Source: a virus
Lineage: Duplodnaviria > Heunggongvirae > Uroviricota > Caudoviricetes
Length of the DNA: 55,008 nucleotides
Virus record (IMG/VR): IMGVR_UViG_3300045988_134234
Coordinates: 1-55,008 of that record
Reading direction: 5' to 3' (one strand)
This document shows positions 579-49,394 of this stretch, piece by piece (position 1 is the first letter of the stretch; every line of letters starts with the position of its first letter). Under the pieces are notes generated by a model that did not search any database, had not been told where the DNA came from, and saw only the letters and a list, made by a program, of their open reading frames with translations. The position numbers and the translations under genes were made by a program.

Positions 579-774
579 AACAGTTCCTCACAGTCATAAC
601 CTGGGGGGAACTGTATGCAGGGTGTGAAATGCGAGAAACAGACAGGCCACCAGTTCAGGGGGATGTGGTTCATAAATCCCCTCACTGGTGACAAGTGACT
701 TTCATTAATCTTTATGCGGGGGCCAGCTTCATTGTTTGCTGGCTGTAGATTAAAAATTAAATAGTGTGAATGAC

Positions 775-2863: not shown

Positions 2864-3198
2864 GCCCCTTTAATCACGGAGATTTCGTTTCCCGCACGAT
2901 AGCGGCGGGGAACGGAACTCTCCATCAGGTCGCGAATTGCTCCCGCCTCACGCAGTTCCTCTGTCTCCCAGTATCTGTTTGTCACCAGGTCAAGGCTGGC
3001 AATGACTTTATGCCGGTCATTCGGCATTGCTTCTTTTTCAGCCATTATCATCAGTGAGAACTCTTCATCCAGTAGAATTTGATACCAGACTTTTGACAGT
3101 TCCAACTCTCTAATGAGGGTGAAGCGCCGCTCAATTGTGGCGGAAGAATAAGTGAAATCAATTTTTTTCGTGGCATACATTTTGCTGTGTCCGGTCAC
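2860..3198 (-). CDS. hypothetical protein (112 aa)
   Basis: ORF only; no motif recognised. Confidence 0.35.
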   Translation of the reverse strand: MTGHSKMYATKKIDFTYSSATIERRFTLIRELELSKVWYQILLDEEFSLMIMAEKEAMPNDRHKVIASLDLVTNRYWETEELREAGAIRDLMESSVPRRYRAGNEISVIKGA

Positions 3199-17274: not shown

Positions 17275-17625
17275 TCATTGTAGTGGGTGGCATTTAACGA
17301 AATCGATCACCCTATCCTGAACTTCAGAAAGAAGGGCTTTTTCACGCGCCAGGACGTCAGGATATTGACGTTCTGGCCTTACCAGATGCCGGAGCTTCCC
17401 ATTAAGCAGAATGGCCTCAGAAAACACTTTTACGCTGTGCTTTATCCCCTCTGTTTCACTTTTCAACGTCAAAATAAAGCGCAATTGCTTATTAGCCTGA
17501 TTCAGATTCAATACACGAATTTGCAGTTCGTCTATGCTGTTTCGCAATGGGATTGATGCCACCACACTGGTGCAGTCTCTGATTGTCTGAATTGAACGGC
17601 TAACATTGAGAACGTTATTGTGCAT
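17275..17625 (-). CDS. hypothetical protein (116 aa)
   Basis: ORF on opposite strand between same-strand arrays. Confidence 0.3.
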   Translation of the reverse strand: MHNNVLNVSRSIQTIRDCTSVVASIPLRNSIDELQIRVLNLNQANKQLRFILTLKSETEGIKHSVKVFSEAILLNGKLRHLVRPERQYPDVLAREKALLSEVQDRVIDFVKCHPLQ

Positions 17626-17657: not shown

Positions 17658-17909
17658 GTGTCAGATCGAAATATAGCAGCTAAAAGCCAGGAAGAGCGAG
17701 ACAAGGTGAACGTAGACCTTGCCGCCAGCGGCGTTGCTTACAAAGAACGCCTGAATATACCCGTGATTGCAGAGCAGGTGGCCCGTGAGCAACCGGAAAA
17801 CCTGCGCGCCTATTTCATGGAACGGCTACGGCACTACCGGCAGTTAAGCCTCCAGTTGCCAAAAGGGAGCGATCCGGTGTATCAGAACGAGGATGCACCA
17901 AAAAAATAA
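17658..17909 (+). CDS. hot: DNA polymerase III theta (HolE)-like protein, P1 Hot-like
   Basis: [43 protein letters not shown] aligns with recalled E. coli HolE ([43 protein letters not shown]). Confidence 0.75.
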
Positions 17910-18285
17910 CGGCAAGATGGGGGAGACATTAAACATGCTTAACTATCACGACAACACGCGTTCTATGCAGACAATCCGCACCAATACAGCGGTGGTCGAT
18001 AGCTTTCCTGTACATACTCAAGGCCGTGAAGATACCGTGGAAGTGCGACGCATGTTGTGTCGCCGGTCACCAGGCCACCAGCACTTCATCGTAACGTTTA
18101 AAAGCGATGTAGAGCGCGCCGAGAAAATCTCTAACTCCACATCTCTGGTTAAGCCGTTGGCGGAGGTTATTGTGCGCAACAATAAGGCGCGCTTTGTCCT
18201 TGAGGAGCATCATTCTGATTTTAATGAAAAAATTGAGTCAAGCATTTTGCAATATATGAATGGCAAGTTCACGCCACCAATGTGA
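17893..18285 (+). CDS. hypothetical protein (130 aa)
   Basis: ORF between hot-like and humD-like genes. Confidence 0.4.
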
Positions 18286-18774: not shown

Positions 18775-18846
18775 GCTGCAAAGTGCTGGTGCTTTATGCC
18801 TGTGAAGTTTATGATTGCGTACACATAACGAGTACACGAGGTGTTT

Positions 18847-19068
18847 ATGCAATCCATTAACTTCCGTACCGCGCGTGGCAACCTTTCTGAAGTGCTCAAC
18901 AATGTTGAAGCCGGGGAAGAGGTTGAAATCACCCGCAGAGGCCGTGAGCCAGCAGTAATTGTCAGCAAGGCTACTTTCGAAGCCTACAAAAAAGCGGCGC
19001 TGGATGCTGAATTTGCATCCCTGTTTGACACCCTGGACTCCACCAACAAGGAACTGGTTAACCGATAA
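18847..19068 (+). CDS. phd: Phd antitoxin
   Basis: [39 protein letters not shown]... matches recalled P1 Phd; ATG at Met3 of ORF 18841..19068. Confidence 0.9.
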
Positions 19069-19448
19069 TGAGGCATATATCACCGGAAGAACTTATTTCG
19101 CTTCATGATGCGAATATAAACCGCTACGGCGGCCTGCCGGGAATGTCAGATCCGGGTAGGGCTGAGGCCATTATCGGGAGAGTTCAGGCCAGAGTTGCCT
19201 ACGAAGAGATCACCGACCTTTTCGAAGTCTCCGCCACCTACCTGGTGGCTACAGCGAGAGGGCATATATTCAATGATGCCAATAAGCGTACCGCGCTAAA
19301 CAGTGCGCTGCTATTTCTACGCCGTAACGGTATACAGGTATATGATTCTCCCGTGCTGGTGGAACTTGCGGTGGGGGCTGCAACTGGTGAAATCCCCGTA
19401 TCTTCAGTAGCGGAAAAACTACGTGAACTATATGGTTCCAATATTTGA
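19068..19448 (+). CDS. doc: Doc toxin (Fic-fold)
   Basis: Fic-type [11 protein letters not shown] motif; 126 aa; translationally coupled to phd. Confidence 0.9.
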
Positions 19449-19452
19449 AAAG

Positions 19453-19478
19453 AAGCCCGCTCAACCAAGCGGGCTTCC
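19453..19478. terminator. hairpin terminator between convergent doc and TerL-like genes
   Basis: GAAGCCCGC-loop-GCGGGCTTC; T4 on minus strand. Confidence 0.5.
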
Positions 19479-19483
19479 TACTA

Positions 19484-20590
19484 TCACTCAATGATTTTTT
19501 CTGCTGTCAGCCAGCTAACTTCTTGCCTGTCTTTCGGCGGTTTTAGCATGTGGGCGTATTCAGCGACATTCTCCCACGGAATTGTTTTTGCCCACTCAAC
19601 GATAGCATTGTGATCTGCAGTGAAGAGTGGAATGGTGTGCGATTTCAACCACTCTAATGTTGTAACGCCATGTTTTTTGGCGTGGTGCTGTGCATGATGC
19701 CGGGCTATCACTAGTAATGGCATTGTCCATTCACTACCATCATGCATCGTAAAGCGCATTGTTTTCGGCATATCTGATTCAAGAACAGCCTCCCGAATAC
19801 CAGGGAACTCACCAAGAACCATACGACGGTAGTAATCGCTATTTTTACCACCATATATTTCTGCAATGTTATCAAGATAACCTTGAGAAATAATGGGGGT
19901 ATCTTCTGCGTTCAACTTGATGGCTGTATAAATACCACATGGATTTTCTTCAGATTTTGCACGACCATGATGGGAATCGTAAAAGTGTCCATGCTCCTCC
20001 TCTGAAGGAGCGGACATTAAAAGTATACGTGAATCGTCACTTACTAACGATGCTCTTAACATGCTGAATAGCCGATCGCCAGCAAGAGCCGCCTCCGTAA
20101 CAATGATTAAAAGATGTTCAGCATAATATCCACCGAAACCTTCCTCATAATTTCGGTGATATGGCTTAATTTCGCAGCCCCAATATTCCCGGTAACGATG
20201 AGTGATGCCGTTTCCGTCGACTTTAAAATATTCTCCCAGCAATGGGATTCTGTTACTGACTCTATCCCAATACGTACTTATGTATTGGATAACTTGCCTG
20301 CGACAATTATAGAACTTTGGGGAAACAATGACCGTTTTAGACTCAGGCATCAGGATTGTATAAAGAATACTAATTATAGCCATAACCGTCTTTTGGCCTA
20401 TCCCTTCAGGAGTGGTGACGCTGACTGCTGAACCTTTTTGTTGAATCGCCTCAACAATTAGCTTTTGCTGGTGGGTTAACTTAACACCCATCAACTCTTC
20501 TGCTGCTAATGCCCAGTCATGGCTATATTTGCTTACCAGCTCTCTCCACTCTGGTAATTCGGTGATGTTTTTAGGCGTCAGCATCAGCAT
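19484..20590 (-). CDS. truncated terminase-large-subunit ATPase-domain paralog with degenerate Walker motifs
   Basis: Aligns by eye to N-terminal half of window TerL 25963..27471 (HQQKLIVEAIQQKGSAVSVTT vs HQQQQIIQSVQETGSRTTVTS; YYAEHLLIIVTEAA vs EHAEHLLLILDEAS; HFYDSHHGRAKSEENP vs YFYESHHSRAKAEGNP); Walker A GHGTGKS replaced by PEGIGQK, Walker B DE by TE; no nuclease domain. Confidence 0.65.
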   Translation of the reverse strand: MLMLTPKNITELPEWRELVSKYSHDWALAAEELMGVKLTHQQKLIVEAIQQKGSAVSVTTPEGIGQKTVMAIISILYTILMPESKTVIVSPKFYNCRRQVIQYISTYWDRVSNRIPLLGEYFKVDGNGITHRYREYWGCEIKPYHRNYEEGFGGYYAEHLLIIVTEAALAGDRLFSMLRASLVSDDSRILLMSAPSEEEHGHFYDSHHGRAKSEENPCGIYTAIKLNAEDTPIISQGYLDNIAEIYGGKNSDYYRRMVLGEFPGIREAVLESDMPKTMRFTMHDGSEWTMPLLVIARHHAQHHAKKHGVTTLEWLKSHTIPLFTADHNAIVEWAKTIPWENVAEYAHMLKPPKDRQEVSWLTAEKIIE

Positions 20591-21377
20591 CCTCCGCTAC
20601 CTCTGCTTCCACATCTGCCGCGACTTCATCGGACTGTTCTTCTTTGGCCTGTTCTGCAATCGCCGCACGGCATTTCGCCCTGGCTGTGGCGATAGCCTCA
20701 ACTTTCACGTCATTAGGAATACTTGAGGTGACATACATATCCAGTTCTTCAGCACGGAATACTGTTTTGCCCAAGAATTCATCAAGCATCCAGGTTAAGG
20801 AAAAGTCGCAGGAAATCAGGTCTACTTCGCCTTCCGCGCCGTTTGGGAAATGGATAAACATCTGCTTGCCCAGGCCAAGCACGCGACAAGCTGCCATCAT
20901 TACTGCAAGTTCCAGGTCTTTGTTTTCACCTGCTACTGGTTGATCCACACCAGTAATAGTGCCGTTCAAATGGATATTATATGGCTGATATTTAGAGATG
21001 CGTTCTACACGCCATGTGCCGGTTAAGGTTCCCTGGCGGAAGATTATTGGCGTGACCGAAAGCGACAGCTCTCGAATGAGTTGTTGCGCTATGGCTGGGT
21101 CATACAGGGGATCTAACGCGATGCATCCATAAGACTGCGCCAGTTCAAACAATTCTTCCTGTGTGCACTGAATGCCTCTTGCCGTAATAAAACGTCTGAC
21201 TCCCGTTTTTCCGTCACGCCAGATAGCAATGCCATTCTCACTATCTAGCTCTTCGTCTAAGCCCAGGTATGTAAGGATGGTTCGCTCAATGGTGGCAAAG
21301 GGCAGGGACATATCATCGTTTACATCCACCAGCAGGCCGTTACGCAGGCGATATTGAATGTTCTTGGTATTTTCCAC
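20571..21377 (-). CDS. hypothetical protein with acidic C-terminal tail
   Basis: 268 aa; C-terminus EEQSDEVAADVEAEVAEDADADA; overlaps start of TerL-like gene. Confidence 0.5.
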   Translation of the reverse strand: MENTKNIQYRLRNGLLVDVNDDMSLPFATIERTILTYLGLDEELDSENGIAIWRDGKTGVRRFITARGIQCTQEELFELAQSYGCIALDPLYDPAIAQQLIRELSLSVTPIIFRQGTLTGTWRVERISKYQPYNIHLNGTITGVDQPVAGENKDLELAVMMAACRVLGLGKQMFIHFPNGAEGEVDLISCDFSLTWMLDEFLGKTVFRAEELDMYVTSSIPNDVKVEAIATARAKCRAAIAEQAKEEQSDEVAADVEAEVAEDADADA

Positions 21378-21383
21378 GTTAAA

Positions 21384-22070
21384 TCACTCCACAACAAACC
21401 AGTCACAGGCCAGCAGGTCGCCAACTGAAGGCACCCACGGAACAACTACACCTTGTGCATTTTTCAAAGCGAAATGCGTACCATAAGGAGCAAGAGGAGA
21501 GTCGAAATTGATTTCAAGCTCTCCATTGATGGCATGTTTTATAGGGGTTAGTCTTGAAGCGCCCTGTTTGTCTGGAACCAGCCAGCAGAATTGGTTTTCG
21601 CCGTTCCACCCGCGCCGGGCAACTTTCTTGCCATCCTTCAGCCACATCAGCGCGTCAGAAAAGTCGGCTGCTTCAAGGTCGATTTCTTCTTGTAGAGTAG
21701 CGATACCGCCAGCAGAAATAGTTACGTCCCTGGCTGTAATGAATGTCACCCCATTGTGACCTTCAATGCTGAGCGATACCCCATTTTCGGAGGCGTCGTT
21801 AACCCGGCTATAGCATTTTTCAAATGCTTTCTCTGGCACATAGACCAGATAGCCATTTTCAGCAGTGACGAGATATCCTCCTATTTGCGGTCGGAATTTT
21901 TCCAAGAACACACCATCAACACGAAGCGTCATTCCTTTTGGCTCCACGACTTCGATACTGCCAAAAATGGGCGCATAAGCTTCGCCGACAATAACAATAT
22001 CTTTGATTTTCGATGCCCGAATGATGCTGTGGCTTTTGTATTTGGGGAACACCTGAAAAGTGCTGGCCAT
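21384..22070 (-). CDS. two-domain protein with C-terminal DUF2829 (Tad2-like) domain
   Basis: C-terminal ALMWLKDGKKVARRGWNGENQFCWLV...VVPWVPSVGDLLACDWFVV resembles recalled DUF2829 signature (GKKV.R.GWNG...VPW....DLLA.DW). Confidence 0.4.
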   Translation of the reverse strand: MASTFQVFPKYKSHSIIRASKIKDIVIVGEAYAPIFGSIEVVEPKGMTLRVDGVFLEKFRPQIGGYLVTAENGYLVYVPEKAFEKCYSRVNDASENGVSLSIEGHNGVTFITARDVTISAGGIATLQEEIDLEAADFSDALMWLKDGKKVARRGWNGENQFCWLVPDKQGASRLTPIKHAINGELEINFDSPLAPYGTHFALKNAQGVVVPWVPSVGDLLACDWFVVE

Positions 22071-22084
22071 AATCTTTCCTCTAC

Positions 22085-22579
22085 TTAAAACTTTTCGTAC
22101 TGAAGCGGTGTACGCTTGATTTCAATGCGGTCTTCCGATGTGCTACCAAAGCCACCAGCACCTCGCTCTGTTTCATCGAGTTCATCAACTTCTACCAGCG
22201 ATACCGGTTCAACACGCTCAAAAATGCCTTGCATGACCGTCATTCCTGGCTTGAGGCAAACGCCTTCACCACCGGGATCTGTAATCAGTTTTGCTTTGAT
22301 TTCACCGCGATAATCGGAGTCGATAATTCCTACGCAGTTAGCCAGGCGCGTATGCTTTTTGCAGCCCAATCCGGAACGAGGATAAAGTTTCAGACACCAG
22401 CCAGGAGGGATCGCCATAGCGAGGCCGGTATGCACCCACCAGCTTGAGGAAATAGCGCCGTTGCTATTGATACCTGGCGTTATTTCAACAGCAATAAAAT
22501 CCATCGCCGCCGATCCGGCGGTGGCGTAAACGGGGAGTTTTGCCGCCGGATGAAGGCGTTTCACTTTCACGTTAATCAT
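22085..22579 (-). CDS. dut: dUTP diphosphatase (trimeric dUTPase)
   Basis: YATAGSAAMD, PRSGLG, GIIDSDYRGEI, RGAGGFGSTS motifs. Confidence 0.85.
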   Translation of the reverse strand: MINVKVKRLHPAAKLPVYATAGSAAMDFIAVEITPGINSNGAISSSWWVHTGLAMAIPPGWCLKLYPRSGLGCKKHTRLANCVGIIDSDYRGEIKAKLITDPGGEGVCLKPGMTVMQGIFERVEPVSLVEVDELDETERGAGGFGSTSEDRIEIKRTPLQYEKF

Positions 22580-23064
22580 TGCTTTTTAGCTCTCCGGGTA
22601 AATGTATAAATCCGGCGTTTGATATGCGGAGCGGTCGGGACGGAGACGCAGGTATTCTCGATAACACCTTGTTCCTCCAGCGATCGCACAGCACGCAAGA
22701 ACTGTGATGCATCGCCACCGCCAGACAGCCAAAATTTGCGGGCATAGACGCTGCCATTACGGATAATTTCTGCGATCACCCGCGCTTGCGTCTGGCTTTC
22801 TCGATAGCCAAAGAGTTCTCTTGCCTCTCCTTGTGGGATAGCCAACTGATAGCCTTTCCCGCTACGGTGACGGACAAAACCGTGAGCAATGAGGTTCTTC
22901 AGCTCATTTCGGGTGCGGATACACCCGTACTCAGGGAACTGTGTGTTGATATCACCAGGCTTATGCCATTCATCAGGACTATCAGCCAGGAGGGACAGAA
23001 GTTTCCCTGACAGCTCAGGATTAGTGGTTGGATAGCAGTTCAGGGATGGGTAGTAAGTTTTCAT
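22576..23064 (-). CDS. hypothetical protein (162 aa)
   Basis: ORF; start overlaps upstream stop. Confidence 0.45.
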   Translation of the reverse strand: MKTYYPSLNCYPTTNPELSGKLLSLLADSPDEWHKPGDINTQFPEYGCIRTRNELKNLIAHGFVRHRSGKGYQLAIPQGEARELFGYRESQTQARVIAEIIRNGSVYARKFWLSGGGDASQFLRAVRSLEEQGVIENTCVSVPTAPHIKRRIYTFTRRAKKQ

Positions 23065-23405
23065 TTGCGCCCCCTTGCCGGATAGCGCCCGGCATTTGCA
23101 TCAGGGGCAATGAAGCCGCTGGTGGGGCGAGTGAAAACATGGTTAATTTTCTCGGTCATAGCGCGATAATTTTCCTGATAGTGGGCCAGGAGTTTTTCAG
23201 CAGCAATGACGGTTACTTTCCGGACGTAGCGTTCAGCTTCCTCCAGATTTCGCCAGTTTTTTTCGAGGGTAAACACGGGAACGGCATCAAGTCCGGTCAT
23301 AACACCGAACACCACGACCGCCTGGTCGCGCTTAACGCCCGCAGTGAAGGTTATGGTGTAACCGTCAACAGTGAAGCGTTTTGATTCCGTAATACGATTG
23401 TGCAA
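23061..23405 (-). CDS. hypothetical protein (114 aa), first gene downstream of cre
   Basis: ORF; operator-like motif upstream. Confidence 0.45.
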   Translation of the reverse strand: MHNRITESKRFTVDGYTITFTAGVKRDQAVVVFGVMTGLDAVPVFTLEKNWRNLEEAERYVRKVTVIAAEKLLAHYQENYRAMTEKINHVFTRPTSGFIAPDANAGRYPARGRK

Positions 23406-23462
23406 AGTACCCTCCGCAATAGGCGAGGGTACTTTACATTAAAATGCACTGTCTAAAAAGGT

Positions 23463-23484
23463 TGTTAGAAAATTAATTTATGAG
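23463..23484. promoter_or_regulatory. operator-like motif TGTTAGAAAATTAATTTATGAG
   Basis: Overlaps 3' end of cre-like gene, upstream of 23405 operon. Confidence 0.4.
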
Positions 23485-24506
23485 TCCATCAGGCGACTAT
23501 TTGCACCAACGGATGCCCCGCTACGGCGCAAATATCGCATAAGTGTTTCGGGCTTTTTCCATGTGCCTTCCTGCATGATCTCGACCATTGACACCTGTTT
23601 CTCAGCCATATCAATTGCCGCACCAACACGCGCACTATGACCTGTCCACGTCCGGTATCTTCCTTTGTTCGGCGTTGCATCTCGTTTGTTCAGCAACCCC
23701 CAGGCATCGCTGAATATTTTCTCCATTGCAGGTGCAGTAAGGGGAGTTGTCGTGATTCTGGCCTTATTACTGCGGTGTATTGGCGGGAATAGCACCGCGT
23801 CCGGATGTTGACGAAGTCCGGACACCTCCAGCCAGTCGTTCAGTACGGCGGTAGTGCAACGAGAAAGCACCTTATCAAGTCCGGCGGCGGTCGTGATGGT
23901 CTTCGTGTGTGAAATATGCAGCGTTACAGTGTCACCTGTTTGGTCCAGATCTCCGACGCGGATGCGCGAGATTTCTGACATACGCATCAGGGTATTGTAT
24001 GCCACGAAGAGAAACGCCCGATTGCGCAGGTCCACCAGCCGCTCGGAACGGGACAGCAATACGTCGAGCAATTTCAGATCATCCCACCGCAACGGTATAG
24101 CCTGGCCTGTTCGCTCGCCTTTTTCCGTTGCCGCTTCGCGTCGGATGCGCCGCATGGCCAGAGACACACTTTTATCGTCCGACAGTGGCGGGAGGCCACA
24201 TTGCGAAAGCAGCATGTTAAGCATGGCATAGTGCTTATCAATGGTGGTCGAAGCCAGATCGGCCTCATGCAACTGGAGAAGATACTCGCGGGCCATTTCC
24301 GGCGTAATCGGGAACCAGGGGCGCTGGCGCGAATTACACCACCGCGCCCAGGAATGAAACACCAGACGGAGATCACGAAGTGTATTTGGGGCATAAGCTC
24401 CCTGGTCGTTCATGAACTGCATAAAGTTTTTTGCAGCTTCCTGGTATTCGGTGCCAATATCGCGCAGAAAACCACCAGAACCGCCGGAGATAACTAGTTC
24501 ACCCAT
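23478..24506 (-). CDS. cre: Cre-like tyrosine site-specific recombinase
   Basis: 342 aa; colinear with recalled P1 Cre (HSWARWC/RSWAAWC, KHYAMLNML, VSLAMRRIRRE, AYNTLMRMSEISRIRV, GHSARVGAAIDMA, W...Y near C-terminus). Confidence 0.85.
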   Translation of the reverse strand: MGELVISGGSGGFLRDIGTEYQEAAKNFMQFMNDQGAYAPNTLRDLRLVFHSWARWCNSRQRPWFPITPEMAREYLLQLHEADLASTTIDKHYAMLNMLLSQCGLPPLSDDKSVSLAMRRIRREAATEKGERTGQAIPLRWDDLKLLDVLLSRSERLVDLRNRAFLFVAYNTLMRMSEISRIRVGDLDQTGDTVTLHISHTKTITTAAGLDKVLSRCTTAVLNDWLEVSGLRQHPDAVLFPPIHRSNKARITTTPLTAPAMEKIFSDAWGLLNKRDATPNKGRYRTWTGHSARVGAAIDMAEKQVSMVEIMQEGTWKKPETLMRYLRRSGASVGANSRLMDS

Positions 24507-24657
24507 GAAACTATTAAACCTCTATATACAGATAACGCTACGTGAAAAATAGAAAACTGACAGGGTAGTTATAAGTTAATTTTCAAAATTCAAGCCTTTG
24601 ATTCGAGGCATGATTTTTCATCCTTGTCAATACTACCTGTTTACTGGAGATTATAGC

Positions 24658-24786: not shown

Positions 24787-24859
24787 GAACAATCAAAAAA
24801 AAGCGGTTTTATCCTTTACTCACCTTGTTATTCAGCATAAATTTGTCACAGGACTTTTA

Positions 24860-24875
24860 TGTTAGAAAACTAAAT
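24860..24875. promoter_or_regulatory. operator-like motif TGTTAGAAAACTAAAT about 12 nt upstream of the 24888 ATG
   Basis: Motif immediately precedes RBS/start of the 345-aa gene. Confidence 0.45.
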
Positions 24876-24887
24876 CGAGTAGGAATA

Positions 24888-25925
24888 ATGAGTAAGAAGT
24901 CGATCGAGAATGAGTACAAACGGTTCCTGCAAACCGCTGAACGGTGGAAAGAGCTGGTGGTCGCAAACTCTGTTTTCCATGATACCAGTTATGTTGGCGA
25001 GGAATTTCGCCATGTTGCATTAACACATGATCCGGCTGTATTAGAAGAAGCTGAAAAATGCATAGCCGAATGGAAAGCCTTTGTTGATCTGTGTCGCAAG
25101 GATGATGACAAAGCCTCAAACATTGTTGAGTCGGTTTATTTACCGATCCCATTCATTGTTGAGGATACTAATCAGAGTACGCATATCGTTATGCAAAGCG
25201 CAACCACAACGAGAACATTTACGCGCGAAGACCTGCTGAAAAAATACGATAAAACTATAAAGAAAAGCATGAAAAACAGGATATTTTCACAGGTTGTCGG
25301 TGCGCTTGAAGAAGAACGCAGATTCTTCGCCGCTGAACGTGAGGGCGAGGTATACCGCGCAAGAAAAGAAGGTTATACCGATGTGGTGATTACCACCAAT
25401 ATCGAGGGCAACAATGGACTTTCACGCTTCAGAGTGGGTACGCACGGTGCGCTGATCTTTGCCAGAAAAGCAAACACAGAGATTCCCGTTGTTAACAACG
25501 TTGGTGAGCGCCGCACCCTTACCATTTACACTGGCATTAAACCGCTTCCGTGCGGACTTCTCGGCGAATTTGACCTTTATCGGGTTCGTGATCTGGAAAA
25601 GCAGCAGCCAAGCTATGTCGTGAAGTCATATATCCTGAGAAACATTGATATCCGCAATCAGAGTTTAAAAAACAAATCAGATAAAATGCTGGCCGAAGCC
25701 GATCCAGCCATACACCAGATCGTTAGCCGGAAAATTCAAGAGGCTAAAGATGCAATGGCAAGGCTGGATAAAATGGACCTGGAACTACTGGAAGTTATGA
25801 TTGCCTCCGGCGATGACCTGACAGGCATCCGCCTTACTGAAGCCAGGAAAAAATACGGTAAAAGCGTTGAAGAACGCTATGGGTACACATTCACACAAAC
25901 GATGTACGCGGCAAAACTCTGGTAA
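24888..25925 (+). CDS. hypothetical protein; candidate master repressor by position and operator context
   Basis: Internal ATG (Met22) of ORF 24825..25925 with AGGAA RBS; between lox/cre and terminase, convergent with pacB; no sequence-level family assignment possible. Confidence 0.35.
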   Translation: MSKKSIENEYKRFLQTAERWKELVVANSVFHDTSYVGEEFRHVALTHDPAVLEEAEKCIAEWKAFVDLCRKDDDKASNIVESVYLPIPFIVEDTNQSTHIVMQSATTTRTFTREDLLKKYDKTIKKSMKNRIFSQVVGALEEERRFFAAEREGEVYRARKEGYTDVVITTNIEGNNGLSRFRVGTHGALIFARKANTEIPVVNNVGERRTLTIYTGIKPLPCGLLGEFDLYRVRDLEKQQPSYVVKSYILRNIDIRNQSLKNKSDKMLAEADPAIHQIVSRKIQEAKDAMARLDKMDLELLEVMIASGDDLTGIRLTEARKKYGKSVEERYGYTFTQTMYAAKLW

Positions 25926-25942
25926 TCGCAAACCACCCACAA

Positions 25943-25964
25943 GCCCCGAATCGCCGGGGCTTTT
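25943..25964 (+). terminator. rho-independent terminator
   Basis: GCCCCG-aatcgc-CGGGGC followed by TTTT, directly after the 24888..25925 stop. Confidence 0.55.
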
Positions 25965-27471
25965 AAATGTCAATATCAGGAATATCCACTTCTGCCAACA
26001 CCTGATCGCGGAATGTTGCGAGTTCTGCGCCAATGTCTTCATTAGCAGGCACGTAATCCACCAGCATAGTGAAGCAGTAGGTATCCCATCTGTCCGGCGA
26101 CTTGATGTTTAACTTCTGCCGCATGTGCTCCTTGCGCATCATCGCTACCTTCCCTTCTTCGTTAAGCATATACGGGATTTTTGATGCCTGATCTGCGGTT
26201 TTGGGGTCACTATCGATACGCATACGCCCGGATTTAATGGCATCCCCTGCCATAATATTGGCGTAAGCACGCTGATTGACAAAGCGTTCTCTGTCTCTTA
26301 GCGCAAACATAGGCTTACCCCAACGGATGCGAACGGGATTAGCACCACGGCGGACAAGCTGCGCACACGTATCTGAACCAAAGCCATCAGCATCCACAGC
26401 AATGGTGATGTTCGGGTATTTATCAGGAGTGCATTCGTTATAGATAAAGTCGGCAAAAGCCAACGGGTCCATAGTGCCTGACATCTCCAGTATCTTAAAG
26501 TTCACAACGCGTCGTTTCTCACGATAACCGGATACTTTGCATATATTGAGCACCGATTTGTCGCGACCATTACCGACGTCAGCGGTCGCTACCCAGCCCC
26601 AATCTTTCTCCAGCAACACTTTACGCCGTGCGGCGCGGTCGCACTCATCACGACCAAGCAAATACCCGTTAATTGCACGCGGGAACTGGCCCAGCACCTT
26701 AACCATGTACTCCAGCGAATCCCTGCCGCCGTACTCCAGCAATTTCTCACGAATAAAGCTCGGTTCAACGAATGGTGATTCTTCAGAGTTAAGGACTATT
26801 GCCGTCCAGACACCTTCCGGATTGCCTTCTGCCTTTGCCCTTGAATGGTGAGATTCATAAAAGTAACCGCTTGGACGCGTAGGCTGGGAAAGCATGAGCA
26901 TACGGTTATCTTTCTGCGTTAACGCCCCCGTCATGACGTTAATCGCCTTATCGGATATGCCCGATGCTTCATCAAGGATTAGCAGTAAATGCTCCGCGTG
27001 CTCCCCCGCCAGTGCCTCTTCGTTACCGAGTCGATAACCTTTACAGAGCACTTCCCATATCCCTTTACGGGAACGCTCATAAAACATGGTGTCAGACAGG
27101 ACAAAATAGGTCTGTAACCAGCCGTGGCGCTTAACAGCATTCGCCCAAAACTGTTTCACGTATTTGAATACGCCTGTTTTTACCTGGCCTATTTTGTTCG
27201 CAACAATAATGACGCGGGCGTCGGGGAACAGGATCATAAAAATTAGTAGCAACATCGCGGTAAGGGACGACTTACCCGTTCCGTGTCCGGACGTAACGGT
27301 CGTCCTGCTCCCCGTCTCCTGCACTGACTGAATGATCTGCTGCTGCTGGTGGGAGGGGAACATCCCAAAAATATCGACAACCGCTTGGGTAAAGTTGTAT
27401 CGATACCTGATAACCATATCGCGCCAACGTGGATCACTGGTGACGCACTTAATCTTACGACCACCAGCCAT
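25963..27471 (-). CDS. pacB: terminase large subunit (PacB-like)
   Basis: Walker A VTSGHGTGKSS, Walker B LLLILDEAS; C-terminal nuclease-type region; 502 aa. Confidence 0.85.
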   Translation of the reverse strand: MAGGRKIKCVTSDPRWRDMVIRYRYNFTQAVVDIFGMFPSHQQQQIIQSVQETGSRTTVTSGHGTGKSSLTAMLLLIFMILFPDARVIIVANKIGQVKTGVFKYVKQFWANAVKRHGWLQTYFVLSDTMFYERSRKGIWEVLCKGYRLGNEEALAGEHAEHLLLILDEASGISDKAINVMTGALTQKDNRMLMLSQPTRPSGYFYESHHSRAKAEGNPEGVWTAIVLNSEESPFVEPSFIREKLLEYGGRDSLEYMVKVLGQFPRAINGYLLGRDECDRAARRKVLLEKDWGWVATADVGNGRDKSVLNICKVSGYREKRRVVNFKILEMSGTMDPLAFADFIYNECTPDKYPNITIAVDADGFGSDTCAQLVRRGANPVRIRWGKPMFALRDRERFVNQRAYANIMAGDAIKSGRMRIDSDPKTADQASKIPYMLNEEGKVAMMRKEHMRQKLNIKSPDRWDTYCFTMLVDYVPANEDIGAELATFRDQVLAEVDIPDIDI

Positions 27472-28835
27472 TAGTCATCCTCCGGCTGGTCTATCGCAAT
27501 CTCGTCATCCACAGCATCAAAACCGGTATCCCCCGCGTCATAATCACCGTAGATATCAGCCGTGGCGGAAGGGTCTATATTCAGGTCTTCATCATTGGCC
27601 TCAAATTCACCGGCTTTACGTTCTCCGTTCCGGTCGTAATCCCCCATCCCAAGCCTATCAACGATTTTCGCTACTTCAGCCCGGCGTTGTGCAAGCCATT
27701 GTGGGAGTCCAGCTTGTTGCTCGGCAAACTGCTTCGCCTCTTTATCCAGTTGCTCATCATCAACATCGTTAACGTCAGAAACCGGAGGCTCCAGAAGTGA
27801 GATCGCTTTTGCCGCTCGTGCCGCCAGGATAGCCGGGACACTGACGCCCTGCCGCTCGATATATTCAGCAACACCTATATCATCCAGCTCCTCGCGCTCA
27901 CGCATACGTATAGCGGCGGCGATAACTCTGGCGGCGCGTGCGTCAGCGCCAATGCGATACTCAATCTCCTTGCCACGCTGCTCGGCTTGTAGGCGGGCAA
28001 TCGCCAGTTTTTCTCTGGCCTCAGCCTCCCTGAATGCCTGCTGACGCGCGCCCTGCGCAAGTTTTTCATCCCCCTGGCGTAGCTTCTGCTCGTTCTGATA
28101 GATGGCTGCCAGCCTGGTGATAAAGTCATTCATGTAGTAGGCCGCATCGCTGATCAGTCCGAGAAGACGCTGCCCTGGGTGCATCCCCTCTGGCTGTGTA
28201 TCACCGAGGGCGTCAATCTCTTCCTGTAGTCGCTCCGCTTCCTGGTCAACGATAGCCTGATACTGAATTGCTCGTTCCTGCGCCATCTGTATCGCAAGTC
28301 GTAAATGTTCAGTCGCGCCGTTCTTCATCATCTCACGGGCGACGTTGGTGGCTGGCAAAGTGGCGCTTTGAGCTGATGAATCAGGGATCATTTGCAATGA
28401 TCCCTTGTTTCGTTGGGCTTTTTCGCTGCTTTTAGGGATCATTTCTCCAATTTCATCACAAAATGATCCCTTCACATCCTTGTGTATCTTGCTGTTATTG
28501 CTTGACTTTTCTTTGTGATCCGCATTTTGTTTTTGCGGCATGGCGCGGAACCGTCCACCAGCTAACGATTTGTCAGTTTTTGTAAATTCTGTGCTTTTAT
28601 CAGCCTTTTTTTGCTCTTTTTTTGAGCCGGTGGCGCAGCTTTTTGCGCGCTGTTTTGTACTTTTCCCGGCAGCCTTAGCTTTCGCCTTAACCTCATTTTT
28701 TTTCATATTGAGATGCTTTCTGGCGGTGTTAAAGCTGAGGTCATGCTGCTCGCAATATTCTTTTATGGTGATCCCGGTTTCTTCTCTTAACTCCAGGAAC
28801 TTAGCTCGATGCGCTTCCCAGTTAATTAACGTCAT
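27471..28835 (-). CDS. pacA: terminase small subunit (PacA-like) containing pac-like GATC cluster
   Basis: N-terminal HTH-like (ITIKEYCEQHDLSFNTARKHL), Lys-rich region, acidic C-terminus; overlaps pacB start. Confidence 0.6.
   Translation of the reverse strand: MTLINWEAHRAKFLELREETGITIKEYCEQHDLSFNTARKHLNMKKNEVKAKAKAAGKSTKQRAKSCATGSKKEQKKADKSTEFTKTDKSLAGGRFRAMPQKQNADHKEKSSNNSKIHKDVKGSFCDEIGEMIPKSSEKAQRNKGSLQMIPDSSAQSATLPATNVAREMMKNGATEHLRLAIQMAQERAIQYQAIVDQEAERLQEEIDALGDTQPEGMHPGQRLLGLISDAAYYMNDFITRLAAIYQNEQKLRQGDEKLAQGARQQAFREAEAREKLAIARLQAEQRGKEIEYRIGADARAARVIAAAIRMREREELDDIGVAEYIERQGVSVPAILAARAAKAISLLEPPVSDVNDVDDEQLDKEAKQFAEQQAGLPQWLAQRRAEVAKIVDRLGMGDYDRNGERKAGEFEANDEDLNIDPSATADIYGDYDAGDTGFDAVDDEIAIDQPEDD
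28383..28520. promoter_or_regulatory. pac-like cluster of five GATC-containing heptamers (GGGATCA/TGATCCC)
   Basis: GATC at about 28386, 28399, 28437, 28465, 28516 arranged as inverted pairs within pacA codons about 105-150. Confidence 0.5.
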
Positions 28836-47708: not shown

Positions 47709-49394
47709 TTAATTATTGCTCATCACAAATTTTGCAAAGTTGATTAATTGTTCTTGCGTCCAGTTTTCCGGATCGTCACCGGACGACAACGGCGCGGATT
47801 CGTACATACCATGCTCGTTGTTTTGCTCTGATTCATTCGCCTTAAACTCTTTGATCATTACGTTGAGAGTGTCATCGTCGATACGAAGCTGTTCGGTGAA
47901 CAGATAACGCATAAACGCGTCGCTACCCGCCAGTTTCGGGTTGTTCTGGATCTGGTCCATTATTTGCGAGATGACAGCTACGAAGTTGGCGCGCGCATCC
48001 AGCTCTCGGTTTTCCTCTTCCTGGATAGCTGTGTTCATTGAGTTGAATTGCACGTCATAAGGACGGTTTTTTTCGGTGTAAACCTTCCCGTATTTATAAG
48101 CGAGGTGAATGTCATGAAGCCGATAAATAGTTCGCTGGGCGGCCTGTCTGATCCAGTTCGCACGTAATGCGGCCTGGATAGCTGTTTGCTGCCAACCGCC
48201 TTCTCCAAGTCCCCCACTCATCTGATCAGCCCAGCCAAGCATTGTTGCGTCAATGCCGAGGCTTGCCGCGAGCTGTCGGAGATGAAACATAACGTCTTCG
48301 ATACCACTGATATCTGCGGGTATAGATTGCGTATCAATGGTGATCCCGTTCTTCCCATCCCCCATGACAGGTATCAGATGGTTAAGTACAGATGGGAGAG
48401 CATTAGAATTAATCGACCGTTGCGCTACGAGGTCGCTATGGCGCTTCAGCGCCTGGCTGACCCCGCGCGTATAATTCGCCGCGTTTACCGGATCTATCGT
48501 GTTCGTTGTGAGTGCAATCAGGCGATCAATTTTTGCAGCGTTGTTTCGCGTTGCTTTCAGCGCAGCAAGCGCGGCACATAAATTCAGGTAGGGTTCATAA
48601 CTGTATTCAAGAAACGACGTACCGTAGTTCTGCGTCTCCATTAACGGCTTGTCCTGCTGTTCACTAAGCAAGGAATAGCCTTTAGTGCCGTAAGTTACTG
48701 GCATTACTTTATGCTGAGGCGTCCAGTACGGGTTTTTCATGGAAACCAGATTCCACGGTTCGGTTATAACTCTGCGCAAAGTATGCGTATCCAGAATATA
48801 ATCACCGCTGAATCCGACAAGTTGGCTACCGCGATAAAACTCCTGAATGAAATGAGGGAGCGTGTAATAGCTCGACTCAATTCCAGTTATCCCCTTCCCT
48901 TGCTCTGCATATGGACGGATATACGACACACCGAAAATAGCCATGATCATGGCCCACGATGGCAGGCCATCATTAATCATTGAGCTTAAATCAGCGGTCA
49001 ATTCCTCACATCGACTTACAGCCTCCTTATCCGCCCCATTTTTCGGAGCGAGAATAAATGCGAGGCCTGTTTTTTTTGATGGAGCCAGAGAATGCGCAAT
49101 GTGAATGTTTAATGCTGTGGAGATAGTCGGACTTTTCGCCATCGTCTCCAGTATGTTGTATTTTTGCAGGCGGTCACTCGGTAATTCTGCCGATATAGAT
49201 ACTGTATCCGCCGCGCTTGTCATGCCATCGCTATTGCTCCCCAGGATGCCAGGACGCAAGGCGGACAGGCCAGAACGAGCAACGACGCTATGCCCGCTCG
49301 CAAATACGACCGGATCGGCAGGCGTAACATCACCACCGCTGAAGGCTTTCTTCAATGCCGACAGAAAGCCCTTGTTTTTGTCTTTCGTTGCCAT
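47709..49394 (-). CDS. putative portal protein (Prt-like position)
   Basis: 561 aa; size and position next to protease-like gene; no motif-level proof. Confidence 0.3.
   Translation of the reverse strand: MATKDKNKGFLSALKKAFSGGDVTPADPVVFASGHSVVARSGLSALRPGILGSNSDGMTSAADTVSISAELPSDRLQKYNILETMAKSPTISTALNIHIAHSLAPSKKTGLAFILAPKNGADKEAVSRCEELTADLSSMINDGLPSWAMIMAIFGVSYIRPYAEQGKGITGIESSYYTLPHFIQEFYRGSQLVGFSGDYILDTHTLRRVITEPWNLVSMKNPYWTPQHKVMPVTYGTKGYSLLSEQQDKPLMETQNYGTSFLEYSYEPYLNLCAALAALKATRNNAAKIDRLIALTTNTIDPVNAANYTRGVSQALKRHSDLVAQRSINSNALPSVLNHLIPVMGDGKNGITIDTQSIPADISGIEDVMFHLRQLAASLGIDATMLGWADQMSGGLGEGGWQQTAIQAALRANWIRQAAQRTIYRLHDIHLAYKYGKVYTEKNRPYDVQFNSMNTAIQEEENRELDARANFVAVISQIMDQIQNNPKLAGSDAFMRYLFTEQLRIDDDTLNVMIKEFKANESEQNNEHGMYESAPLSSGDDPENWTQEQLINFAKFVMSNN

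Follow-up and report, generated by a model that had tools for sequence, protein, structure and literature searches.

Locus and Features

The window analyzed here (the whole 55,008-nucleotide stretch of IMG/VR record IMGVR_UViG_3300045988_134234) is a D6-like phage-plasmid of the P1 group, and the present analysis concerns six genes on its minus strand (19484-23405), principally the last of them (19484-20590), which encodes a paralog of the large terminase subunit (TerL) PacB with degenerate catalytic motifs, referred to below as the pseudo-terminase. Read along the minus strand, this part of the window contains an lpa-like gene, pacA (27471-28835), pacB (25963-27471), a convergent gene for a protein of 366 amino acids (aa), a lox/rox-type spacer, the gene for a Cre-like recombinase, and the six genes, which lie between the recombinase gene and phd-doc (18841-19448) and meet the latter head-to-head. 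The region from 19000 to 24600 has 82.8% nucleotide identity with Escherichia phage D6 and 98.8% with E. coli plasmids such as NZ_CP104667. The six open reading frames (ORFs) have the coordinates given in the initial annotation and are as tightly packed as was stated there; the first two junctions are overlaps of 4 nucleotides (nt) each, the next two are gaps of 14 and 6 nt, and the last is an overlap of 14-20 nt. The features of the pseudo-terminase gene and of its reference paralog are as follows.

19484-20590, minus strand: PacB-derived pseudo-terminase; longest ORF 368 aa, likely start ATG 20584 (366 aa)
19796-20590, minus strand: N-terminal helices and ATPase-like fold, residues 1-265, homologous to PacB residues 8-264
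20387-20413, minus strand: degenerate P-loop, T60-T68 (TPEGIGQKT), opposite PacB SGHGTGKSS, with Gln at the position of the Walker A lysine
20090-20113, minus strand: degenerate Walker B, L160-A167 (LLIIVTEA), opposite PacB LLILDEA, with loss of the aspartate
19487-19795, minus strand: C-terminal domain, residues ~266-368, in place of the nuclease domain; member of an unnamed, widespread phage family
25963-27471, minus strand: reference paralog PacB (TerL, 502 aa), with GHGTGKS and LDEA intact and the nuclease half present; called functional

The start at 20584 is the probable one because orthologues are annotated from the third codon, giving 366 aa.

Homology to PacB and Loss of the Catalytic Motifs

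In a BLASTP comparison, the pseudo-terminase and the PacB of the window have 87 identities over 258 aa (34%) with 2 gaps (E 9e-52), so that the last gene is a paralog of the ATPase half of PacB, as had been proposed in the initial annotation. The PacB proteins of the window and of P1 are 56% identical to each other, and the pseudo-terminase is 34-36% identical to either. The pairwise alignment also bears out the motif substitutions described previously, with TTPEGIGQK opposite TSGHGTGKS and IIVTEA opposite LILDEA. The GK[ST] signature with the catalytic lysine, which marks the Walker A motif of a large terminase, is absent; the Walker B motif (hhhhDE, with an aspartate and the catalytic glutamate) is represented in the window copy by IIVTEA, and there is no RNase H-like nuclease domain, the alignment with PacB stopping at residue ~264. 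The gene is also outside the late packaging module of small terminase and portal genes, pacA-pacB being ~5.4 kb away. What is retained is a terminase-type ASCE ATPase fold homologous to that of known TerL proteins. The AlphaFold (AF2) model has a predicted local distance difference test score (pLDDT) of 78, and the top matches of this model in a Foldseek search of the PDB are the TerL ATPase domains of P74-26 (E 9e-9), D6E, T4 gp17, and Sf6 gp2, with E values of ~1e-8 to 1e-6.

The pseudo-terminase family already exists as the unannotated family phrog_5902, to which the protein is assigned by a PHROG search with an E value of 5.6e-133 (residues 7-367 on profile positions 3-358 of 359); the match is full-length, extending over the ATPase-like part and the tail, and the family carries no functional annotation. 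It should be noted that PacB itself also scores on phrog_5902 through the shared N-terminal half. Literature searches for a dead terminase paralog, for isaA function, and for the D6 region turned up no description of the gene, although the original D6 genome paper lay outside these searches and may mention it. These comparisons indicate that the protein is very probably an accessory pseudoenzyme derived from the PacB of the P1/D6 group, in which the fold has been kept, the Walker A lysine and Walker B aspartate have been lost, and the nuclease domain has been exchanged for another.

Conservation, Selection, and Origin of the Family

Homologues of 364-367 aa occur at 98, 88, 81, 64, 49, and 37-38% identity to the window copy. 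In every family member examined, the Walker A lysine is absent or displaced; the P-loop variants of the other members are GIGHKS, GIGRPQ, GIGETS, GVGTTT, GVGSSH, and GTGTTT, and GIGRPQ, GIGETS, GVGTTT, and GVGSSH are without any lysine. In the Walker B motif, the Asp position is occupied by Thr, Ala, Met, Val, Ile, or Leu and the Glu position by Glu, Asp, or Asn, including AE, MD, VD, IN, and LN pairs. This loss extends to every clade looked at (the window clade, P0002-4, P0007, P0275, P0020, and the P1-type copy). The paralogs keep several structural motifs in common with PacB, namely HQQ, GxG, Ser193 (the coupling-motif serine), GxFYxSHH, and YGG, and many invariant residues persist across the family. 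A P1-type copy in phage vB_EcoM-813R1 (L003, 5971-7041) is the sole length variant seen; it is annotated as 356 aa and diverges at the C-terminal end, and the difference in its tail may reflect a frameshift or a sequencing difference.

In a neighbor-joining analysis of the ATPase part, 98% of 300 bootstraps group the dead paralogs together, and 99% separate the paralogs plus the PacB proteins of P1 and D6 from other terminases, support being counted as bipartition frequencies. The pseudo-terminase family branches as the sister of P1 and D6 PacB, and the simplest reading of these relationships would be that pacB was duplicated once, long ago, and that the copy then lost catalysis and underwent the domain swap.

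Ratios of non-synonymous to synonymous substitution (dN/dS), calculated by the method of Nei and Gojobori, are 0.15-0.57 for the whole pseudo-terminase gene, as compared with 0.05-0.55 (mostly 0.1-0.3) for isaA, the gene that precedes it, and 0.10-0.45 (mostly 0.1-0.2) for the dUTPase gene, dut, at the same loci. In the tail, dN/dS is 0.06-0.3 in most measurable pairs and ~1.1-1.3 in two closely related pairs with very few substitutions.

Two alleles are present in D6-like plasmids, A (the window and L007) and B (L006 and L008). Codons 1-30 of the two are identical and their tails are identical or nearly so, at synonymous and non-synonymous sites alike. Between these ends, in codons 91-120, 40% of the non-synonymous sites differ and the ratio of non-synonymous to synonymous differences (pN/pS) is 1.13, followed by 0.6-0.9 in codons 121-150; dN/dS is 0.45-0.55 for the ATPase-like part and ~1 in codons 91-150. 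Similarly, the window copy and the 64%-identical type have a pS of 0.17 in the tail and 0.64 in the ATPase part. From these codon comparisons, the ATPase-like core appears to be an exchangeable, fast-changing cassette between conserved ends. The pattern is that of a fast-evolving patch on the surface of a conserved scaffold, and diversifying pressure on an interface would explain it no better than simple relaxation of constraint.

The missing catalytic motifs and the fairly high dN/dS of the ATPase part, both in the A/B comparison as a whole and locally, are features that a functionless, decaying remnant of a duplicated pacB, carried along with isaA, would also show. This explanation is highly improbable, and we have rejected it. 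Intact ORFs of 364-368 aa are found in all clades even though synonymous divergence between clades is saturated (dS > 2), whole-gene dN/dS never reaches 1, values of ~1 or more being confined to local windows and to the tail of the two close pairs, and many residues are invariant. The acquired tail is well conserved and is modeled with a pLDDT of 92. A full-length copy is present in ~164 of the 790 plasmids that encode a PacB-like protein (tblastn). The recent pseudogene that the initial annotation had named as a possible objection is therefore largely refuted by the selection and conservation data, and the pseudo-terminase, as judged from these comparisons, is a putatively non-catalytic PacB-derived protein kept by selection.

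Linkage to isaA and Transcriptional Context

20571-21377, minus strand: IsaA homologue, 268 aa, with an acidic C terminus; stop overlaps the pseudo-terminase start
23478-24506, minus strand: Cre/Dre-type tyrosine recombinase, directly upstream of the six genes; annotated in D6 as "similar to P1 gene cre"
23401-23438, minus strand: strong RNA hairpin in the 72-nt spacer from cre to the first gene; the 3' arm covers the TTG start of the 114-aa gene
19450-19479, minus strand: intrinsic terminator hairpin, 13-base pair stem and UUUU, 5 nt past the last stop; faces doc

The product of 20571-21377 is 47% identical to P1 IsaA over 262 aa (E 4e-86) and belongs to phrog_2326 (8e-125), a family without assigned function; a PDB sequence search with it gave nothing meaningful. 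The acidic tail that had been ascribed to it can be seen in the translation. In seven of seven E. coli loci, at two genomic positions, the pseudo-terminase start overlaps the isaA stop. In D6-like plasmids, the pair closes the cre-proximal unit; in the P1-type phages MH422554 and vB_EcoM-813R1, it lies between ssb and hxr, at the place of isaA-IS1-isaB in P1. The natural unit is isaA with the pseudo-terminase gene rather than the six-gene set. In the E. coli elements, the gene is predicted to be translationally coupled to isaA and to belong to early or lysogenic-type units, not to the late packaging operon. The isaA region of P1 is a recognized variable region of P1-like phage-plasmids (PMC6906374, PMC9603915), and P1 isaA was found to be non-essential by CRISPRi (PMC10695390). 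P1 isaB was considered as a remnant of the pseudo-terminase gene split by IS1, but this was rejected, there being no similarity between them and tblastn finding only pacB in P1.

Phage D6 has the first five of the six genes and lacks the sixth, in place of which it has pdcA on the other strand. The orf117-orf116-dut segment is present in ~124 D6-like plasmids and the D6-type paralog in ~44 of them; the P1-type copy of the paralog is found in ~120 plasmids. The initial annotation had viewed the operon as an accessory island; comparison with D6-like plasmids limits this to the sixth gene, since the five upstream genes, conserved in D6 and ~124 plasmids, are lineage core. In a distant relative with 38% identity (L016, a 63-kb contig from Logan SRR15600246), the paralog directly follows a DnaB-family helicase gene and has no adjacent isaA. 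Within 8 kb of that copy are genes for a 273-aa Tad2-like protein, a HigB toxin with a helix-turn-helix partner, a Sequestin-domain protein, and a large Dmt-like methylase.

The suggestion of one operon is supported: the six genes give the impression of a co-transcribed set, which is closed by a strong intrinsic terminator with a folding energy of -22 kcal/mol (z -4.8). A scan of the 72-nt spacer between cre and orf117 found no sigma-70-like site, but one is present upstream of cre at 24677-24650 (TTGGCA-16-TATAAT, an 11/12 match). From the tight packing, the spacer without a promoter, the promoter match before cre, and the terminator at the end, the six genes plausibly constitute one transcription unit, probably read together with cre from its promoter. 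The hairpin in the spacer is predicted to fold with -23.5 kcal/mol (z -6.2), and none of 200 shuffled sequences was as stable; it could serve to terminate or attenuate transcription past cre, or to control translation. The P1 C1 operator consensus has no match anywhere in the window at ≤3 mismatches, and no P1 late-promoter motif is found near 19.4-24.7 kb. The positions shared by three annotated P1 late promoters (ANGTGANTNNNNTTANNNT, ≤1 mismatch) are matched in the window only at 693-711 (plus strand), 48692-48710 (plus strand), and 3145-3163 (minus strand), none of which is upstream of pacA or near the six-gene unit.

The C-terminal Domain

The initial annotation had described the end of the pseudo-terminase as an unrelated 85-aa tail. 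The nuclease half is indeed replaced, but the tail is ~100 aa long (residues ~266-368) and is a conserved domain, not an arbitrary sequence. In the model, it folds confidently, and it retrieves 173 clusters at E ≤1e-3 as a single query and 227 clusters at E ≤1e-5 as a profile, among 1.84 billion representatives. Most members of the family are stand-alone proteins of ~100 aa from phage-like contigs, and they follow the pattern MPDGSxWxVP..VIA..RA.HYA...TLPLF..D..EI.DWA.NNMNWxDV...DY.EGWxNG. A PDB sequence search with the family profile gave nothing meaningful; the domain has no structural relative among solved structures, nor did the searches reveal a motif or fold match pointing to DNA binding or recombination. 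It was also considered that the tail might be a diverged nuclease domain; this was rejected because there is no BLAST similarity to PacB past residue ~264 and the tail has its own stand-alone family.

In a P1-like contig (P0020; L018, 8001-10384; NCBI GCA_024867085.4), the order is reversed, with the 100-aa domain preceding a dead PacB-type ATPase that has GSGTGTTT as its P-loop; this ORF is cut by an inserted Tn3-family transposase gene. The fusion of the two in either order suggests that the tail and the dead ATPase domain work together. An AbiH gene and a gene for a Ref-like RecA-dependent nuclease are located in the same neighborhood.

The contexts of the stand-alone domain have no single consistent neighbor overall. 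Stand-alone genes follow RecT/YqaJ/RNase T/AAA_23 genes in L009, a gene for a RecE-like exonuclease in L012, and RusA in L014, and the domain is also found at the end of long DUF1351 proteins (phrog_17928). DUF1351 genes typically adjoin those for phage single-strand annealing recombinases (SSAPs), in a slot otherwise occupied by Gam-like or exonuclease genes (PMC8093625). In Mu-like phage contigs (L010/L011, 6001-8543), a stand-alone gene lies directly before those for a DUF1804 small terminase, a large terminase, and a Mu-type portal, and this is the only packaging-module context seen for the domain; the remaining contexts are runs of small uncharacterized genes.

These neighborhoods raise the question of whether the pseudo-terminase functions outside packaging, in early phage DNA metabolism such as replication, recombination, or the handling of DNA ends, with the dead ATPase fold serving as a scaffold that binds DNA or protein and the tail carrying the conserved activity, for example the binding of a recombination or replication factor. 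The locations of the full-length gene, after ssb together with isaA in the P1-type phages and after the helicase gene in the distant relative, are in keeping with such a role, as is the better conservation of the tail relative to the drifting ATPase-like core. The Mu-like arrangement and the runs of small genes do not fit it, no recognizable DNA-binding or recombination module was found, and the complete PacB N terminus and ATPase fold have been retained over a long divergence; this retention would be hard to explain if the tail alone mattered, given that it functions by itself in other phages. Such a role is possible but somewhat doubtful, and nearly as likely as the binding of the PacA/PacB packaging enzyme (pacase) that is considered next.

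Putative Function of the Pseudo-terminase

Since every catalytic residue has been lost and the nuclease half swapped, the pseudo-terminase probably acts by binding rather than catalysis, and we tentatively infer that its partner is the PacA/PacB packaging enzyme. In several phages, the N terminus of TerL binds the small terminase subunit, and catalytically dead subunits are able to poison ring ATPase motors. The retained PacB-like N-terminal helices and ATPase surfaces of the pseudo-terminase might bind PacA, co-assemble with PacB, or both, to give complexes that would neither cleave pac nor translocate DNA. Being made from cre, ssb, or ban-type units, the protein would be present before the late genes are turned on. 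It could act as a safety lock, sparing the plasmid prophage from leaky cutting by the pacase, or as an exclusion factor directed at a related superinfecting or co-resident P1-like element, and the C-terminal domain and IsaA might add a second point of attachment, either to DNA or to some other protein. The more specific proposal, that the pseudo-terminase is dominant-negative, binding PacA and/or poisoning PacB rings and thereby blocking the packaging of competing P1-like elements or protecting the resident pac site, is rather unlikely when taken as a whole.

A number of observations weigh against this assignment to packaging. The gene was never found to adjoin pacA, pacB, or portal genes; the ssb and dnaB-like contexts of the gene and the RecT, RecE-like, RusA, and SSAP contexts of the stand-alone or DUF1351-fused tails point to replication and recombination. 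The role of decoy, exclusion factor, or regulator suggested in the initial annotation would be plausible, but these contexts favor early DNA metabolism to at least the same degree. D6, P1, and most relatives do without the gene, which therefore does not regulate packaging in general. The sequences give no indication that the pseudo-terminase has co-evolved with the resident PacB, since it is no more similar to this protein than to that of P1 (34% and 36%, respectively, for the window copy; 33% and 33% for the P1-type copy). In the window clade, a Lys-Thr pair is present one position after the canonical GK[ST], so that residual nucleotide binding is possible; the displaced pair is absent from other clades.

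A different kind of binding role, which we regard as unlikely, is that of a decoy in conflict or counter-defense, in which a TerL look-alike made early would occupy host sensors (NLR-like proteins of the Avs type) or satellite factors that target the terminase. Such a role would be in accord with the patchy, accessory distribution of the gene in known variable regions of P1-like elements (PMC6906374, PMC9603915), and with its position in the same transcription unit as a protein matching solved structures of the anti-Thoeris protein Tad2. The allelic cassettes and the patch with pN/pS ~1 might likewise reflect conflict, but plain loss of constraint fits this ratio as well, and the remaining operon genes are lineage core rather than an island. 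The model of the pseudo-terminase also aligns with the Avs3-bound PhiV-1 terminase (8dgc_E). In that complex, recognition is reportedly through the nucleotide-bound ATPase active site and the nuclease active site, and the pseudo-terminase would be expected to be a poor mimic of the Avs3 target because it lacks both; moreover, binding would be expected to activate terminase sensors rather than block them. No PADLOC family or known anti-defense family matched the pseudo-terminase.

Relationship to Known Systems

The large terminase is regarded as an essential, strongly conserved enzyme present in a single copy; its gene is used as a phage marker, and bacterial immune receptors sense the protein. 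The pseudo-terminase resembles P1 PacB in its N-terminal helices and whole ATPase domain (34-36% identity to the D6-type and P1 proteins) but differs from it in having no Walker A lysine, Walker B aspartate, or nuclease, in its different C-terminal domain, and in being an accessory protein encoded away from pacA and the portal gene. The ATPase-only packaging enzymes of the phi29 gp16 type also have a terminase-type ATPase domain without the RNase H-like nuclease; these, however, are active motors with intact Walker motifs and the sole packaging ATPases of their phages, whereas the pseudo-terminase is a second, inactive copy. The Ppi proteins of SaPIs (Staphylococcus aureus pathogenicity islands) and the Rpp proteins of PICIs (phage-inducible chromosomal islands) are small satellite proteins, unrelated to terminases, that bind the terminase of the helper phage. 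The likeness to these lies in the putative mechanism proposed here, inhibition or redirection of packaging by binding of a terminase subunit; the pseudo-terminase is itself a terminase derivative and is encoded by the phage-plasmid.

The long maintenance of a dead second terminase copy with a new domain shows that the fold of a terminase can take on a role other than that of a motor. If this role is inhibition or regulation of the P1 pacase, it bears on competition among the P1, P7, and D6 phage-plasmids that spread resistance genes in Enterobacteriaceae, on the stability of the plasmid prophage, and on P1-based tools for transduction. Should the dominant-negative proposal be correct, the protein would be the first phage-encoded packaging inhibitor derived from a terminase, and the ~100-aa domain would be a new module associated with terminases or DNA ends. 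This previously unannotated domain, which occurs in hundreds of phage lineages, is now defined, and its fusion to a dead terminase is a first lead to its function. It should also be recognized that automatic annotation labels some copies of the pseudo-terminase "terminase large subunit" (MH422554, P0005), which misleads both genome annotation and TerL phylogenies.

Other Genes of the Unit and Its Surroundings

23061-23405, minus strand: 114-aa protein with a TTG start; homologue of D6 orf117; phrog_1968 (E 4.1e-44)
22576-23064, minus strand: 162-aa protein; homologue of D6 orf116; phrog_6669 (E 2.3e-86)
22085-22579, minus strand: dUTP diphosphatase (dUTPase) of the trimeric type, 164 aa; PF00692 (2.2e-13)
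21384-22070, minus strand: 228-aa fusion of an N-terminal phrog_11049 domain and a C-terminal Tad2-like DUF2829 domain (residues 136-227)

Beyond PHROG, the 114-aa protein has no match in Pfam, PADLOC, NCBIfam, or the PDB, and the 162-aa protein has none in Pfam, NCBIfam, PADLOC, or the PDB. The earlier identification of a dUTPase is upheld, since the product of 22085-22579 also scores above the cutoffs of the family profiles TIGR00576 (117.8 bits; cutoff 102.55) and NF001862 (117.5 bits; cutoff 103), and the motifs GIIDSDYRGE and GGFGST are intact in its translation. The same is true of the Tad2-like DUF2829 domain in the product of 21384-22070, which matches PF11195 at 1e-21 (77.7 bits; gathering cutoff 25) and, directly, the solved Tad2 structures 9eib (2.8e-13), 8v3e (3.7e-13), 8wjd, and 8sme. 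Tad2, which sequesters the gcADPR signal of Thoeris, is a stand-alone protein of ~90 aa, whereas the product in the window has an additional N-terminal domain of ~130 aa. The D6 protein is a short form of 146 aa without the N-terminal domain, which is present in SJ46 and several plasmids. This N-terminal part (21384-21770) has a weak match to the decoration protein Dec of phage L (6e3c, E 7e-4, residues 57-98). The ligand or target of the predicted Tad2-like domain cannot be inferred from these matches because the family also includes AcrIIA7 (8kbi), to which the protein is similar as well. The view of the operon as a defense or anti-defense island is not supported: searches of all six proteins against the PADLOC-DB models gave no families at E ≤0.01, and five of the genes belong to the core of the lineage.

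Two observations concern the surroundings of the unit. The 366-aa gene (24825-25925, plus strand) that is convergent with pacB belongs to phrog_1678 (E 3e-159) and occupies the position of the c1 repressor gene in P1. On the other side of phd-doc, two small divergent ORFs, 17275-17625 (minus strand, 116 aa) and 17893-18285 (plus strand, 130 aa), appear to have a similar stretch that includes SIQTIRDCTSVVASIP, which suggests that they are a locally duplicated gene pair.

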